A stretch of DNA of 43,248 bases from NCBI GenBank assembly GCA_029210695.1, contig JARGFH010000031.1, positions 1-43,248 on the forward strand, in the 5' to 3' direction. This document shows, piece by piece, positions 2,580 to 10,053 of the stretch. Numbering within the stretch: position 1 is the first letter of the stretch; each line of letters begins with the position of its first letter. This stretch comes from Acidimicrobiia bacterium. GTDB lineage: Bacteria; Actinomycetota; Acidimicrobiia; Spongiisociales; JAHEDJ01. Below the pieces are notes generated by a model. That model was not told where the DNA came from, ran no database searches, and saw only the letters and a list, made by a program, of their open reading frames with translations. The position numbers and the translations under genes were made by a program.

Positions 2580-3776
2580 ATGGGTAAGGCGAAGTTTGAG
2601 CGGACGAAGCCGCATGTGAATGTGGGGACGATGGGTCATATTGATCATGGGAAGACGACGTTGACGGCTGCGATTACGAAGGTGTTGTCGGAGTCTGGGG
2701 TTGGTGGGGCGACGGCGTTTACGGCGTTTGATGATATTGATAAGGCGCCGGAGGAGCGTGAGCGGGGTATCACGATTTCGATTGCTCATGTGGAGTATGA
2801 GACGGCGAATCGTCATTATGCGCATGTGGATATGCCTGGTCATGCTGATTACATCAAGAACATGATTACGGGTGCTGCGCAGATTGATGGGGCGATTTTG
2901 GTGGTGTCGGCGGCTGATGGTCCGATGCCGCAGACGCGTGAGCATGTGTTGTTGGCTCGTCAGGTTGGGGTTCCGTTCATTGTTGTGTATATGAATAAGA
3001 CGGACATGGTTGATGATGATGAGCTTCTTGATTTGGTTGAGTTGGAGGTTCGTGAGTTGTTGTCGGAGTATGAGTTTCCTGGTGATGAGTTGCCGGTGAT
3101 TCGTGGTTCGGCGTTGAAGGCGCTTGAGGGTGGGGATGAGGCTTCGGTTGCTTCGGTTATGGAGTTGATGGAGGCGGTTGATACGTATATTCCGGTGCCG
3201 GAGCGGGATACGGAGAAGCCGTTTCAGATGCCGATTGAGGATGTGTTCTCGATTACTGGTCGGGGGACGGTGGTGACTGGGAAGGTTGAGCAGGGGATTC
3301 TCAAGACGGGTACTGAGGTTGAGATTGTTGGGATTCGTCCGACGCGCAAAACGGTGGTGACCGGGGTTGAGATGTTCCGGAAGTTGTTGGATGAGGCTCG
3401 GGCGGGTGACAATGTTGGGTTGTTGTTGCGGGGGATTGGGAAGGATGATGTGGAGCGGGGTCAGGTGATTTGTATTCCTGGTTCGATTACTCCGCATACT
3501 GATTTTGAGGCGAATGTGTATGTGTTGACTCGGGATGAGGGTGGCCGGCATAACCCGTTTTTCCCTGGGTATCGGCCGCAGTTTTATTTCCGGACGACGG
3601 ATGTGACTGGGTCGGTGACGTTGCCTGAGGGTACTGAGATGGTGATGCCTGGTGATAACACGACGATGACGGTGGAGTTGATTAATCCGATTGCTATGCA
3701 TGAGGGTCGTGATTTCGCGATTCGTGAGGGTGGTCGGACGGTTGGTGCTGGTCGGGTCACCAAGATTCTGAAGTAA
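2580..3776 (+). CDS. tuf: Elongation factor Tu (copy 1, tRNA-linked)
   Basis: [27 protein letters not shown] motifs; 398 aa; AGGAG RBS. Confidence 0.99.
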
Positions 3777-5050: not shown

Positions 5051-5617
5051 ATGGAGAATCCAGAAGTCGAACCCGTCGACGAAGCACAGCTGATTCGGAC
5101 GGCTCAGGTCGGCGACAGAAGCGCATTCGAAGAACTGGTTCGAAGACATCAACACGGAGTATTCACCTTGGCTCTGCGACTGGTAAACGATCGGGAGTTG
5201 GCAGCAGACGTCACCCAGGATGCGTTCATCCGGGCCTGGCGCGGACTGCCGCGCTTCCGGGGTGATGCCGCCTTCAAGACATGGATTCATCGGATCACGG
5301 TGAACGCCGCATGGTCGATGAAGAAGCGCACCGGTCGCCACCTGGCCGTTCCTCTCGAGGGTGCTCCCCAGATCGCAGACAAGACGCTGTCGGGCGACCT
5401 CGAGCGAGCAGGGGAGAACCTCGAACTTCGCCACCGCCTGCGGGCTGCACTCGATGAGCTACCGCGTCCCCAGCGCACGGTTGTGGTGCTCAAGGACATC
5501 TACGGTTGGTCGCACGGCGAAATTGCTGAGTCGTTGGGTATCACCGTCACCGCCGCCAAGGTCCGCCTGCATCGCGCCCATCATCGGCTCCGCCAACACC
5601 TCGAAGGTGAATCATGA
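5051..5617 (+). CDS. ECF RNA polymerase sigma factor
   Basis: GDRSAFEELV, DVTQDAFIRAW, FKTWIHRITVN region 2; region 4 HTH WSHGEIAESLGITVTAAKVRLHRA. Confidence 0.93.
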   Translation: MENPEVEPVDEAQLIRTAQVGDRSAFEELVRRHQHGVFTLALRLVNDRELAADVTQDAFIRAWRGLPRFRGDAAFKTWIHRITVNAAWSMKKRTGRHLAVPLEGAPQIADKTLSGDLERAGENLELRHRLRAALDELPRPQRTVVVLKDIYGWSHGEIAESLGITVTAAKVRLHRAHHRLRQHLEGES

Positions 5618-6534: not shown

Positions 6535-7242
6535 ATGACAATTGCAGAGACACCTGAAGAGACTCCGGTCGAGACCACTGCTCCGGCCGCCGAAGAAACC
6601 GCAGTAGCGGCCGCCGGCGCGGTTGCCGTTGTTGAGGAGAGCCCGGCAGAGTCAGATCCGGTTGACGAGACCGTCCTCGAAGAAGAGGAGCCCTTGAGCC
6701 CGTTCGATTTGCCGGGCGATTGGTATGTTGTCCATTCCTACTCCGGTTACGAGAACAAGGTGAAGGTAAACCTCGAGACTCGCTCCAAGTCGATGCACAT
6801 GGAGGATCGGATCTACGAAGTTGCCATCCCGATGGAAGACGTCGTTGAGATCAAGAACGGCAAGAAGGTCACCGTCCCGCGGAAGATGTTCCCCGGCTAC
6901 ATCCTCGTGCGCATGCACCTCGACGACGACTCCTGGTACGGGGTGCGGAACACTCCAGGGGTCACGGGGTTCGTCGGATCGGCCAACAAGCCGGTTCCGT
7001 TGTCCCGGCGTGAAGTCGAGCGATTTCTCGGAGTCAAAGAAGAGGAAGACAAGAAGGCGCCTCGCTACAAGCCCTCATGGGAGATCGGCGACAGCGTTCG
7101 TGTACAGACGGGGCCATTCGCCGACTTCAACGGAGTCATCGAGGACATCAACCTCGATCAGTCCAAGGTCGTCGTGCTCGTCAACATCTTTGGTCGGGAC
7201 ACTCCGGTCGAGTTGAACTTCGAGGACATCATCAAGAACTAG
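6535..7242 (+). CDS. nusG: Transcription termination/antitermination factor NusG
   Basis: WYVVHSYSGYENKVK, FPGYILV, KOW GPFADF; acidic N-terminal extension. Confidence 0.98.
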   Translation: MTIAETPEETPVETTAPAAEETAVAAAGAVAVVEESPAESDPVDETVLEEEEPLSPFDLPGDWYVVHSYSGYENKVKVNLETRSKSMHMEDRIYEVAIPMEDVVEIKNGKKVTVPRKMFPGYILVRMHLDDDSWYGVRNTPGVTGFVGSANKPVPLSRREVERFLGVKEEEDKKAPRYKPSWEIGDSVRVQTGPFADFNGVIEDINLDQSKVVVLVNIFGRDTPVELNFEDIIKN

Positions 7243-7277
7243 GTACCAAGTACCGAGTACCAGTACTGGGACCAAGT
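7242..7277. repeat. Degenerate 7-bp array (RGTACCR)
   Basis: GGTACCA AGTACCG AGTACC AGTACTG GGACCA immediately after the nusG stop. Confidence 0.75.
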
Positions 7278-7315: not shown

Positions 7316-7744
7316 GTGGGTAGAAAAAAACTGAGTACCGTCTTGAAGCTGCAGATCCCGGCCGGGCAGGCCAGCCCCGCCCCTCCGGTGGGTCCTGCGC
7401 TCGGCCAGTACGGTGTCAACATCATGGACTTCGTCAAGGCCTACAATGAGGCTACGGCGTCGCAGATTGGGACAATCGTTCCGGTCGAAATCTCGATCTA
7501 CGAGGATCGGACGTTCACATTCGTCACCAAGACGCCGCCCGCCGCGGTGTTGCTGCGCCAGGCGGCGCGGATCGAGAAGGGCTCGCCCGAGCCGCAAACC
7601 ATCAAGGTCGGAAAAGTGACTCGCGCCCAGGTGCGCGAGATCGCGGAGACGAAGATGGTCGACCTCAACGCCAACGATGTTGATGCAGCCATGAAGATCG
7701 TCGAGGGCACGGCCCGTTCCATGGGTCTTTTGGTCGAAGGCTAG
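7316..7744 (+). CDS. rplK: 50S ribosomal protein L11
   Basis: [20 protein letters not shown] motifs. Confidence 0.98.
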
Positions 7745-7838: not shown

Positions 7839-8555
7839 ATGCCCAAGCACGGCAAGCGATATCGGGATCTGGTACAGCGGTATGACAAAGAGACCGCCTA
7901 CTCCCCGGAAGAAGCCATCGAGTTTGTTCGGATGTTCGCAGATGCGAAATTCGACGAGAGCATCGACGTAGCCTTCAAACTCGGAATCGACCCCCGGCAG
8001 GCAGATCAGATCGTTCGTGGAACTGTCAGCCTTCCTCACGGCACGGGCCAGGTGGTGCGCGTGGTCGTGTTCGCGCAGGCGGATAAGGCCCGCGAGGCCG
8101 AAGCCGCCGGTGCCGACCTGGTCGGGGGTAGCGAACTCGCCGAAGAGATCGCAGGAGGACGGGCTCTCGACTTCGACATCGCCATCGCTACTCCGGACAT
8201 GATGGCTGAGGTCGGGAAACTCGGGCGGGTGCTGGGCCCTCGGGGCCTGATGCCGAACCCCAAGGCCGGAACCGTGACGGTGGATGTCGCCAGAGCGGTT
8301 CAGGAGTTCAAATCCGGCCGCATCGAGTACCGCAATGATCGATTTGGCAACGTCCAGGTTCCGATCGGCAAAGCGTCGTTCGAAGCCGAAGCGCTCGTGA
8401 CGAACCTCGGCGCCTTGGCCGCCGAACTTCAGCGAGTTCGTCCCGCCTCCGCCAAGGGCCGCTATTTCCGTCATCTTGCCATCTCGTCGACGATGGGCCC
8501 CGGGATCAAGATCGACCCGGCTCGCCTAGAAGATCTCGTCAAGGCGAGTAAATAG
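7839..8555 (+). CDS. rplA: 50S ribosomal protein L1
   Basis: [36 protein letters not shown]. Confidence 0.98.
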
Positions 8556-8679
8556 TCGCGGGTCGCTAGTCGCGGGTCGCGGGTCAATCGAAGGGCGGCC
8601 GAACCCGGCCGCCCTTCCTGCTCCGTGCTGATACTCGCGACTAGTAACTCGCGACTAGGAACTAGCAACTCGCGACTAG
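8553..8679. terminator. Bidirectional terminator hairpin flanked by inverted GTCGCGR heptamer arrays
   Basis: Core GAAGGGCGGCCG-AACC-CGGCCGCCCTTC (8590-8617); arrays 8553-8585 and 8633-8679 are mutually complementary. Confidence 0.7.
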
Positions 8680-8681
8680 GG

Positions 8682-8908
8682 GCGGAGAGCGAGGGGGTTC
8701 CGCTGAGAGCGCCGATGCTGCTCGGGCGGCGCCGGGGCCGGGGCCGGCGACTGCGGGCTGCAGTCGCCGTGGGTCACCCTCGCTGCGACGCTGTCAGGGT
8801 AGGGGCTGCACGCGTCGCCGGGTATACCCGGGCCGATCTCAGTTGCGGGCGAGGGCGGTCAGGTCAACCCACCCGTCGTTACGAAACCCCCTTCGGGTGT
8901 CTCTCCGT
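8682..8908 (-). ncRNA. Candidate structured non-coding RNA, Ms1-like
   Basis: Nested closing helices CGGAGAG/CUCUCCG, GGGGGUUUCG/CGGAACCCCC and CUGAGA/UCUCAG; internal hairpins; promoter TAGCCA-17-GATAGT ending 6 nt upstream; terminator downstream. Confidence 0.6.
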
Positions 8909-8914
8909 GTTGGC

Positions 8915-8943
8915 ACTATCGCGCATATGCCGCAACTTGGCTA
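8915..8943 (-). promoter_or_regulatory. Putative promoter of the ncRNA candidate
   Basis: Minus-strand TAGCCA (8943-8938), 17 bp, GATAGT (8920-8915); predicted +1 A at 8908. Confidence 0.45.
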
Positions 8944-8991
8944 GCGGAAACTCGGTGCGTGACGCGGATCGCGCGGATAGAGAAGTTGCGG

Positions 8992-9057
8992 CGTCGCGAG
9001 TCGCGGGTCGCGAGTGGCTGGTGCGTGCCCGCGACTCGCGACGAGTAACTCGCGACG
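8992..9057. repeat. GTCGCGR heptamer array forming a 16-bp inverted repeat
   Basis: CGTCGCGAGTCGCGGG (8992-9007) / CCCGCGACTCGCGACG (9028-9043), plus an extra unit. Confidence 0.85.
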
Positions 9058-9125
9058 ATTCTGACAACTTGCTGTTCCCAACAGGAGGGCGTACGCTCCG
9101 TGCCAACAACTCCAACCTCGGTTCT

Positions 9126-9175
9126 GAGACCGCCGGTGCCTTCGGGCTCAAAGGGTTCGCCCGCCTGCGTAGACC
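9126..9175 (+). promoter_or_regulatory. L10 leader (rplJL autoregulatory RNA)
   Basis: GAGACCGCCGGTGCC-TTCG-GGCTCAAAGGG-TTCG-CCCGCCTGCGTAGAC matches the L10 leader pattern; upstream of rplJ. Confidence 0.75.
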
Positions 9176-9243
9176 GCCTCCCACAGGGGTCCCCGTCTCA
9201 TCATGACCGAGGGACCTTTTCTAATGTGAGGAGGAGTACGCGT

Positions 9244-10053
9244 ATGCCGAGACCTGAAAAGGTCCAAGCAGTTGAAGAAATCAAGGAGCGTCTCGAGAAC
9301 TCTGAGGCGACCTTCCTGGCCGAGTACCGGGGACTGTCCGTGTCCGAGCAGCAGCAGCTGCGTCGCGGATTGCGGGCTGCAGATGCCGAGTACAAGGTTG
9401 TGAAGATGTCGCTGGCCCGCCGCGCCGCGACCGAACTCGGACTCGATGAACTCATCGAGTCGATGCACGGGCCGACGGCGCTTGCGTTCGCGAATTCGGA
9501 TGCGGTTCCGGTTGCCAAGGTTTTGAAGGACTTCGCCAAAGAGCACGATCGTCTCGTGCTCAAAGTTGGTCTGATGTCCGGCAAGCTCTTGCCGCCGGAA
9601 CAGGTGAGCAAGCTCGCCGAAATCGAACCGCGCGATGTCTTGCTCGCCAAGATTGCGGGAGCTGCCAAGGCGCCGCTCAGCAAGATGGCAGGCATGCTCG
9701 GGTCGTTTGTGCGGGATTCCGCTTCGTTGTTCTTCCAACTGCTCGAGATAAAAGAATCGAGTGAACCGGCGCCGGCCGCTGAAGTCGAGGCACCCGCCTC
9801 GACAGACCGGGTCGAGGCTGCTGCCGACCCCGCCGAGGTTTCCGCTCCGGCAGACAAGGCCGAAGTCGCCGAAACGACGACCGATGAAGCAGCCGAGGGC
9901 GAGGAGCCCACAGCTGAAGTTGATCAGACCCATTCGGCCGAGGCAGAACTTGCCGAAGCCGGCGAAGGTCCCGAGGAAGAGGCCGAGTCAGACGACGAGT
10001 CCGATTCCGACTCCCAAAATGATGACAAGGCCGACCAGGCCGAGGAGGAGTAA
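9244..10053 (+). CDS. rplJ: 50S ribosomal protein L10 with long acidic C-terminal extension
   Basis: [34 protein letters not shown] before ATG 9244. Confidence 0.96.

Follow-up and report, generated by a model that had tools for sequence, protein, structure and literature searches.

A probable small RNA gene between rplA and rplJ represents a candidate structured RNA family of Acidimicrobiia

The spacer between the ribosomal protein genes rplA and rplJ in a 43,248-nt stretch of DNA from an Acidimicrobiia bacterium (contig JARGFH010000031.1; the whole stretch is referred to as the window) probably harbours a genuine small RNA (sRNA) gene. The gene occupies positions 8682-8943 of the minus strand, is preceded by a predicted promoter of its own and, judged by comparative analysis, would represent an undescribed family of structured non-coding RNAs (ncRNAs) in one sampled clade of Acidimicrobiia, whose members we infer to be trans-acting scaffolds. 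A first-pass annotation, made from the letters of the DNA without database searches, had noticed a structured RNA here and offered two identities for it, a divergent Ms1 homologue or a new ncRNA family. Our results speak for the latter: the promoter is conserved, the helices covary, relatives carry terminators, G-U pairs are in strand-specific excess, the gene is single copy in the window, and Rfam contains no relevant match to the window RNA or to the two relatives that were searched.

The 227 nt from 8908 to 8682 were folded and compared with dinucleotide shuffles (200 per strand). The minus strand reached a minimum free energy (MFE) of -119.7 kcal/mol, whereas the mean of its shuffles was -98.65 (z -4.73), and none of the 200 shuffles folded as well. 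On the plus strand the MFE is identical, but 53 of its 200 shuffles were as good (z -0.76). That is, the structured RNA of about 227 nt proposed at first pass exceeds its shuffles on the minus strand only. All helices named in that proposal were recovered as well (CGGAGAG/CUCUCCG, GGGGGUUUCG/CGGAACCCCC, CUGAGA/UCUCAG, CCGGGUAUACCCGG, GACGC../..GCGUC and CGGCGACUGC/GCAGUCGCCG). The elements of the gene are the following (relatives are given by locus number):

8938..8943, minus strand: -35-like hexamer TAGCCA, invariant in L001 and L002 and aligned with TGGACA of distant members
8915..8920, minus strand: -10-like hexamer GATAGT, 17 nt past the -35 hexamer and 7 nt before A8908
8682..8908, minus strand: structured core of the sRNA, with its predicted start at A8908 and ending with the terminal helix, whose 3' strand it includes (fold z -4.73; 77-81% identity to L001 and L002)
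8901..8907 with 8683..8689, minus strand: outer extension of P1 in the window fold, CGGAGAG with CUCUCCG
8693..8702, minus strand: 3' strand CGGAACCCCC of the closing helix P1, pairing with GGGGGUUUCG at 8882-8891
8846..8875, minus strand: hairpin P2 with stem CGGGUGGG / CUCGCCCG, its loop holding CCUGACCGCC at 8854-8863
8837..8842, minus strand: 5' strand CUGAGA of helix P3, pairing with UCUCAG at 8703-8708
8786..8816, minus strand: hairpin P7 with stem GACGCGUGCAG ... CUGACAGCGUC and loop CCCCUACC at 8798-8805

Relatives were collected by scanning a genome collection with the window RplA, which yielded 80 loci; the family is thus sampled around rplA. With blastn, L002 matched the spacer over 564 nt (80.9% identity) and L001 over 523 nt (76.9%), and a short conserved core was detected in more distant loci and extended by profile searches. 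A covariance model built from eight distant members (alignment A4, R1) matched 24 of the 80 loci (L001-L016, L019-L023, L025, L026 and L029), with E<=1.7e-4 in 23 of them and E 1.4e-3 in L015; the copy in L026 is truncated by the contig end. All 24 positive loci come from Acidimicrobiia-type metagenome-assembled genomes (MAGs). The other 56 loci gave nothing or noise-level matches at E>=0.02, and they include Bacillota, other Actinomycetota and loci labelled Acidimicrobiales or Ilumatobacteraceae. An nhmmer profile of a 21-member alignment added no members to those of the first covariance model. A sequence profile of 19 members that excluded L001 and L002 had a single match in the 43-kb window, at 8794-8891 on the minus strand (E 2.9e-9), and the RNA is single copy within the window. 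One locus, L014, contains in addition a 44-nt partial model match (5421-5464, minus strand; 27.6 bits, E ~1e-5) 1.5 kb from its full copy, which probably represents no more than a GC hairpin similar to P1.

Covariation was quantified on a model-fitted alignment (A6) of 23 rows, in which 56 base pairs span 1134 cells. In total, 93.3% of the cells pair, versus 70.6% in shuffles (none of 500 reached the observed value) and 40-48% in controls with the partners slid. Two-sided, that is compensatory, changes occur in 48 of the 56 pairs, so that the covariation suggested as a check on the spacers of relatives was indeed found, and the covariation score is 0.472 compared with 0.067-0.087 after sliding the partners. 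Such changes affect 10 of the 13 pairs of P1 (family helix 1, 96.6% of cells paired), 7 of the 8 pairs of P2, and every one of the six pairs in both P3 (family helix 3) and P7 (family helix 8). The same was visible in plain MAFFT alignments, as far as the sequences could be aligned: in alignment A3, which includes the window, the P2 pair 42-62 is CG in seven sequences, UA in six and UG in one, the P7 pair 121-137 is CG in seven and GC in six, and the pairs of the P7 stem swap between CG, GC, AU and UA beneath an invariant loop. RNAalifold recovered the whole architecture from MAFFT alignment A4. The alignments indicate that the structure is maintained by selection through compensatory substitutions. 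They also carry a strand signal, with 89 G-U cells against 28 A-C cells, and RNAalifold scores the sense alignment at -52.4 and its reverse complement at -40.3. Transcription is thus assigned to the strand to which the promoter and the terminators also point.

Four helices (P1, P2, P3 and P7) are common to all members including the window. P1 closes a core of about 200-230 nt, P3 extends the axis of P1, and the interior holds additional helices in varying number, up to ten helices in all. The motif CCUGACCGCC in the P2 loop is invariant in nearly all members, P7 forms a hairpin in every member, its stem covarying and its loop CCCCUACC conserved, and most members possess a further small hairpin, P8, whose loop is GGACCUGGCA. 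Read by eye, each of the three conserved loops has a CCUG inside it or at its border. We define the family by P1, the P2 loop CCUGACCGCC, P3, the P7 loop CCCCUACC and the promoter T(G/A)G(A/C)CN-17-(G/C)A(C/T)A(C/G)T; the window RNA has all of these and is without the P8 loop motif. In 12 of 13 folded members, P2 either belonged to the MFE structure or cost 0.9-3.1 kcal/mol relative to it, the exception being L025, where the automatic choice of the stem was poor.

It had further been suggested that alternative pairings make up a pseudoknot or conformational switch. Such pairings do exist in the window, where the MFE structure uses them and gains 3.1 kcal/mol over the family fold, but they found no comparative support. 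Pairing of the P2 3' strand with GGUGG of P8 is compatible in 95.4% of 87 cells, with no two-sided change in any of them, and every shuffle equals this compatibility; a pseudoknot or switch of these two segments is thus sequence-compatible, and the alignment, being without covariation here, neither supports nor excludes it. In the window and its two nearest-aligned loci (L001 and L002), the P2 3' strand has another possible partner in GGGU(G/A)A, with a single exchange between G-C and A-U setting the window apart from the other two (by eye, three sequences only).

The promoter had been placed upstream of A8908 as TAGCCA-17-GATAGT, and both hexamers are present on the minus strand with this spacing. 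A block that includes them (8908-8945) is invariant in L001 and L002, while its flanks and the sequence further upstream diverge. The promoter of the distant group, CCCTGGACA-17-GACACT, aligns column for column with that of the window. Among the 23 members with sufficient upstream sequence, 15 match the strict pattern T[AG]G[AC]CN-N17-[CG]A[TC]A[ACG]T, which ends 4-32 nt before the model match, and five more match a looser version at the same place; the upstream regions of L006, L019 and L020 matched neither. From its sequence, we regard this as a sigma-70-like promoter conserved in register across members. In group-1 members (L008-L010, L012, L013 and L025), a palindrome, TCCAG-N7-CTGGA, overlaps the -35 hexamer (for example at ~4030-4050 in L010) and is possibly the operator of a regulator.

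Downstream of the RNA, a canonical intrinsic terminator, that is a GC-rich hairpin followed by a T-rich run, was found in 13 of 24 members (23 loci and the window), for example GAAGAGCCCCCGAGAGGGGGCTCTTCTG in L009. Unlike these, the RNA genes of the window, L001 and L002 are followed by a long hairpin of heptad repeats with a GC core. For the window, a GGGCGGC terminator at 8590-8617 had been proposed; its perfect 12-bp inverted repeat was confirmed, whereas a U-tract is missing on the minus strand. Because of this missing tract we can only infer termination at 8590-8617. The enclosing hairpin, modelled by folding, is the probable stop for both rplA and the sRNA, acting in both directions. The transcript would then probably reach the GC hairpin and measure ~320 nt, unless trimmed back to P1, and its 3' end lies, with some uncertainty, between 8682 and about 8586. 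Two hairpins of this type surround the gene:

8548..8682, both strands: long heptad-repeat hairpin around the perfect 12-bp GC hairpin (z -7.7 on the minus and -8.0 on the plus strand)
8985..9060, both strands: second hairpin of heptad repeats, with the sRNA promoter on one side and the rplJ promoter and leader on the other (z -4.5 / -4.3), a possible insulator

On the plus strand, Pfam assignments gave the gene order nusG (6535-7242), rplK (7316-7744), rplA (7839-8555), rplJ (9244-10053), rplL, rpoB and rpoC, which puts the sRNA gene ~2 kb upstream of rpoB. The rplA-rplJ gap, estimated at ~690 bp before, measures 688 nt. The label antisense, which the first-pass annotation gave to the RNA, is correct as to the minus strand and loose otherwise, the gene being convergent with rplA and divergent from rplJ without overlapping either. 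Since the plus strand carries nothing that overlaps the element, the label holds only with regard to possible read-through from rplA.

Several observations weigh against a genuine sRNA gene that encodes a trans-acting scaffold. A consensus scanner found neither promoter nor terminator in 8400-9400 of the window; the hexamers are weak, agreeing with the consensus at 8 of 12 positions by hand count where the scanner threshold is 9, and the window copy is without a U-tract terminator. It is also the most divergent copy, of which the covariance model aligns only the 5' half (18.3 bits), the P8 loop motif GGACCUGGCA has diverged or been lost in the window, L001 and L002, and the single-sequence MFE of the window prefers an alternative to P2, so that forcing P2 costs 3.1 kcal/mol. 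As for the comparative data, every relative is a MAG, the E-values of the covariance model are rough because its calibration was shortened, and the main covariation count stems from a model-fitted alignment, which leans towards structure and includes one partial row (the 44-nt match of L014). Finally, the scaffold mechanism is deduced from anatomy and synteny, and sequences complementary to the two invariant loops occur in the window without enrichment (9 versus 6.1 expected and 6 versus 9.8 expected).

With this in mind, we propose that the folded RNA would act in trans as a rigid scaffold which presents the invariant C-rich loops CCUGACCGCC (P2) and CCCCUACC (P7) to a partner. Most likely, this partner would be a protein or RNA of the translation or transcription apparatus, because the position of the RNA gene inside the rplKA-rplJL-rpoBC cluster is nearly constant. 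Of the 24 copies of the gene, 22 are oriented opposite to rplA and two, in L011 and L014, share its strand, each with its promoter attached. In L025 and L026 the gene is ~1.8-2.9 kb away from rplA, and in L008-L010 and L029 it is 1.1-1.9 kb away from rplJ. Inversion in two loci and displacement in two others point to an autonomous, trans-acting RNA gene and therefore not to a cis antisense element. In some relatives other ORFs accompany the RNA gene (L010 4091-4911; L025 3770-5343 and 5773-6688). By eye, those between the RNA gene and rplA in L025 resemble an ECF sigma factor and a putative anti-sigma factor, and others, upstream of the RNA gene and on its strand, are hydrolase-like; in L010 the latter lie between the RNA gene and rplJ and are apparently frameshifted.

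The main alternative to the scaffold is a base-pairing regulatory sRNA, whose C-rich loops would serve as seeds against G-rich mRNA regions like those of Gram-positive C-rich-loop sRNAs, and we consider it rather unlikely. Two invariant, unpaired C-rich loops on stable hairpins would suit such a role, and P2 of L016 weakly resembles the C-rich-loop sRNA CcsR1, albeit not significantly (14.6 bits, E 0.46, the best sub-threshold Rfam resemblance). About ten covarying helices are, however, far more scaffold than is usual for seed-pairing sRNAs, the loops are without the anti-Shine-Dalgarno sequence CUCC, and their complements show no enrichment within the window. One candidate target was seen by eye: the P8 loop sequence GACCUG is complementary to a conserved CAGGUC of the rplJ leader over only 6 nt, but both are altered in the window group and no compensating pattern was seen. 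It is also doubtful that the family is the Acidimicrobiia counterpart of 6S, Ms1 and CoRP, that is an abundant RNA that binds RNA polymerase (RNAP; core or holoenzyme) and is encoded beside rpoBC. Its ~210-230 nt, its paired ends, its own promoter and the 2 kb to rpoB would fit. Each species has been proposed to have one lineage-specific RNAP-associating RNA, CoRP was found as a wholly new RNA in Corynebacterium, and more such RNAs are argued to await discovery (PMC11077062). A missing Ms1 match does not exclude the analogy, since the Rfam Ms1 model reaches only close relatives of mycobacteria (PMC9130861). In group-1 members, an internal loop of ~13 x 15 nt between P3 and P4 would fit as well, but it contains two covarying pairs (helix 4) and does not appear in the folds of the window, L001 and L002. 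We rate this reading low because conservation resides in apical loops that covarying hairpins carry and not in an open bubble; in addition, no 6S or Ms1 match was obtained at E<=10 in three members, the immediate neighbours are not those of Ms1, and a string search found none of the three family motifs in Ms1 of S. coelicolor. Should the analogy nevertheless hold, and we think it improbable, the family might be the missing RNAP-associating RNA of Acidimicrobiia and, with 6S, Ms1 and CoRP preceding it, the third or fourth kind of structure known to sequester RNAP.

A role in cis is very unlikely. In this case, convergent transcription or the antisense RNA would block or tune read-through from rplKA into rplJL-rpoBC, or the conserved structure would be that of a plus-strand rplA 3' untranslated region or rplJ leader. 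The RNA is indeed placed exactly between the two operons in most loci, two long hairpins flank it in the window, and in L003, L007, L015 and L021 it reaches directly to the rplA stop codon at its 3' end, with no terminator in between. Such a device is difficult to reconcile with the copies that share the strand of rplA or have moved away from rplA or rplJ, and both the G-U excess and the fold z-score favour the minus strand. Moreover, the actual rplJ leader is a separate conserved element (9107-9236); the sRNA is located upstream of it and on the opposite strand, and an identity of the sRNA with the L10 (rplJ) leader was rejected. Least probable of all, with almost no weight in our judgement, is the remnant of a miniature inverted-repeat transposable element (MITE) or other mobile element, or a chance fold of GC-rich DNA. 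Two arms (8551-8583 and 9028-9060) are 82% complementary across 444 nt, as terminal inverted repeats would be. These arms are, however, heptad-repeat hairpins that differ in sequence in L001 and L002, while the RNA between them is conserved. The window and each locus hold a single, syntenically placed copy, plasmid and phage collections gave no match to the RNA, and neither a MITE nor a chance fold agrees with compensatory changes in 48 of 56 pairs. Protein-coding ORFs at 8625-9206 (plus strand), 8879-9184 and 8471-8668 (both minus strand) were also considered and rejected, as they had no Pfam match and were not conserved; the window differs from L001 and L002 by indels of 4 and 2 nt, and a plus-strand ORF of 193 aa is not kept in L002.

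The neighbourhood of the gene yielded some further observations. Tandem 7-nt repeats (GTCGCGG, ACTCGCG and GTACCNA) fill intergenic regions of the window genome and its relatives. In the window, they lie at 8551-8585, 8633-8680, 8985-9022, 9028-9060 and 7243-7275; they are also present at equivalent places in L001 and L002 and near the RNA gene in L014, L016, L023 and L006. Sets of these repeats in inverted orientation build long hairpins when folded (z -4.3 to -8.0). L001 and L002 have the same hairpin architecture at the same spot made of another heptad (TTGGCCA/TTAGCCN), and therefore structure and not sequence is retained. Terminator, insulator and protein-binding array are candidate roles of these hairpins.

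The plus-strand 5' leader of rplJ (9107-9236) is conserved in relatives and reads AGACCGYYGGUG ... CGCAGGUC, followed by a hairpin and a U-run. The Rfam L10_leader model did not recognise the window leader at E<=10, and its best match to the leader of L010 was sub-threshold (18.9 bits, gathering score 44). The element is a divergent L10 leader outside the current Rfam model. RplJ itself (269 aa in the window) has its L10 domain at residues 1-99 and continues into a long, very acidic, low-complexity C-terminal tail; relatives align only over the first ~170 residues. A resemblance of the P2 loop to CCCnGACCGyC, the 5' strand of the helix in the rplJ leader, is not taken as evidence. The same applies to the last codons of rplA in L007 (DLTALAH, ~3695-3720), which are identical over 19 nt to the P2 loop and 3' strand of the window (GACCTGACCGCCCTCGCCC, 8848-8866, minus strand), in the same sense although the genes are on opposite strands. 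In other species these codons vary synonymously. The identity may be due to chance or be a trace of the origin of P2.

Acidimicrobiia are abundant and mostly uncultured bacteria of soils, fresh water and the sea, and to our knowledge almost nothing has been described of their RNA biology. Literature searches retrieved only unrelated papers, among those listed, for 6S RNA in Acidimicrobiia, only work on raiA for structured ncRNA in Acidimicrobiia and, among the matches listed, only primer-type entries for the motif strings of the family. 6S RNA has reportedly been predicted in some actinobacteria outside the Actinomycetia. An RNA of ~210 nt with roughly ten covarying helices and invariant loops, fixed beside the genes for L1, L10 and RNAP in about two dozen species, falls into the small class of bacterial RNAs with complex folds, which are usually ribonucleoprotein components or global regulators. 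It is a candidate for a new Rfam family that would improve the annotation of Acidimicrobiia genomes, and for asking whether these bacteria possess their own regulatory RNA linked to RNAP or the ribosome, and its invariant loops are a target for structural and biochemical study. If the RNA did associate with RNAP, its location in rplKAJL-rpoBC would tie its dosage to the enzyme that it controls; if it is only an ordinary clade-specific sRNA, the gain is the improved annotation.

How does the RNA compare with known families? Rfam 15 at gathering score identified four tRNAs only in the whole window. At E<=10, nothing relevant was found over the RNA in the window, L010 and L016, which holds for 6S, Ms1, raiA, the signal recognition particle RNA and RNase P, and the nusG-rplK spacer gave nothing relevant either. 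miRNA-type matches at this threshold fall on the heptad-repeat hairpins.

Ms1 (also MTS2823 or scr3559), an sRNA of Actinomycetia that binds the RNAP core and accumulates in stationary phase, is similar in that it is an independent, highly structured sRNA gene of Actinomycetota, ~230-300 nt in size and with its own promoter, and Ms1 of S. coelicolor, at 226 nt, is close to the length of the window RNA. Ms1 loci are defined by synteny with a HAD-hydrolase gene, and published accounts give the RNA a 6S-like rod shape, with a bubble in its centre and one short hairpin each at its 5' end and its 3' end (PMC9130861). The window RNA, in contrast, has rplA and rplJ as immediate neighbours (for a HAD hydrolase, only these neighbours were considered), and its ends pair in the closing helix P1 around a branched interior, which sets it apart from Ms1 as published. 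Ms1 has been predicted in 824 species of 14 orders, and Acidimicrobiia are not among them in Table 4 of that study (PMC9130861); the string 'Acidimicrobi' occurs neither in its main text nor in its supplement (0 occurrences each). The three family motifs likewise have 0 occurrences in the supplement that prints the S. coelicolor Ms1 verified by rapid amplification of cDNA ends (a string search against one Ms1 sequence, no alignment). The proposal of a divergent Ms1 homologue thus found no support: there is no Rfam match, the synteny is not that of a HAD hydrolase, the architecture is not a 6S-like rod, and the published range does not include this class.

6S RNA and CoRP share with the window RNA the size class, paired termini, a housekeeping-type neighbourhood and a lineage-restricted sequence. 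The window RNA differs from 6S by its conservation, which is concentrated in hairpin loops and not in the large, unpaired central bubble by which 6S mimics an open promoter, and by the missing Rfam match; from CoRP, which is ~500 nt long and located among tRNA genes in Corynebacterium (PMC11077062), it differs by its ~210-230 nt between rplA and rplJ. The raiA motif RNAs, which occur in Acidimicrobiia (PMC10861870), are comparable as independent transcripts of ~200 nt with many covarying helices, invariant unpaired nucleotides, a translation-linked neighbourhood and an orientation that varies relative to the neighbours, a variability that has been used as an argument against a cis role (PMC10861870). 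They differ in having raiA and comFC instead of rplA and rplJ as neighbours and in spanning Bacillota and Actinomycetota, whereas the present family, of which three members were searched against Rfam without a raiA match, was seen only in the 24 related MAG loci and the window. C-rich-loop sRNAs such as CcsR1, whose resemblance to P2 of L016 is sub-threshold, also display conserved C-rich loops on hairpins; they are short RNAs of one or two hairpins, whereas the loops of the window RNA are embedded in a large, multi-branched scaffold.

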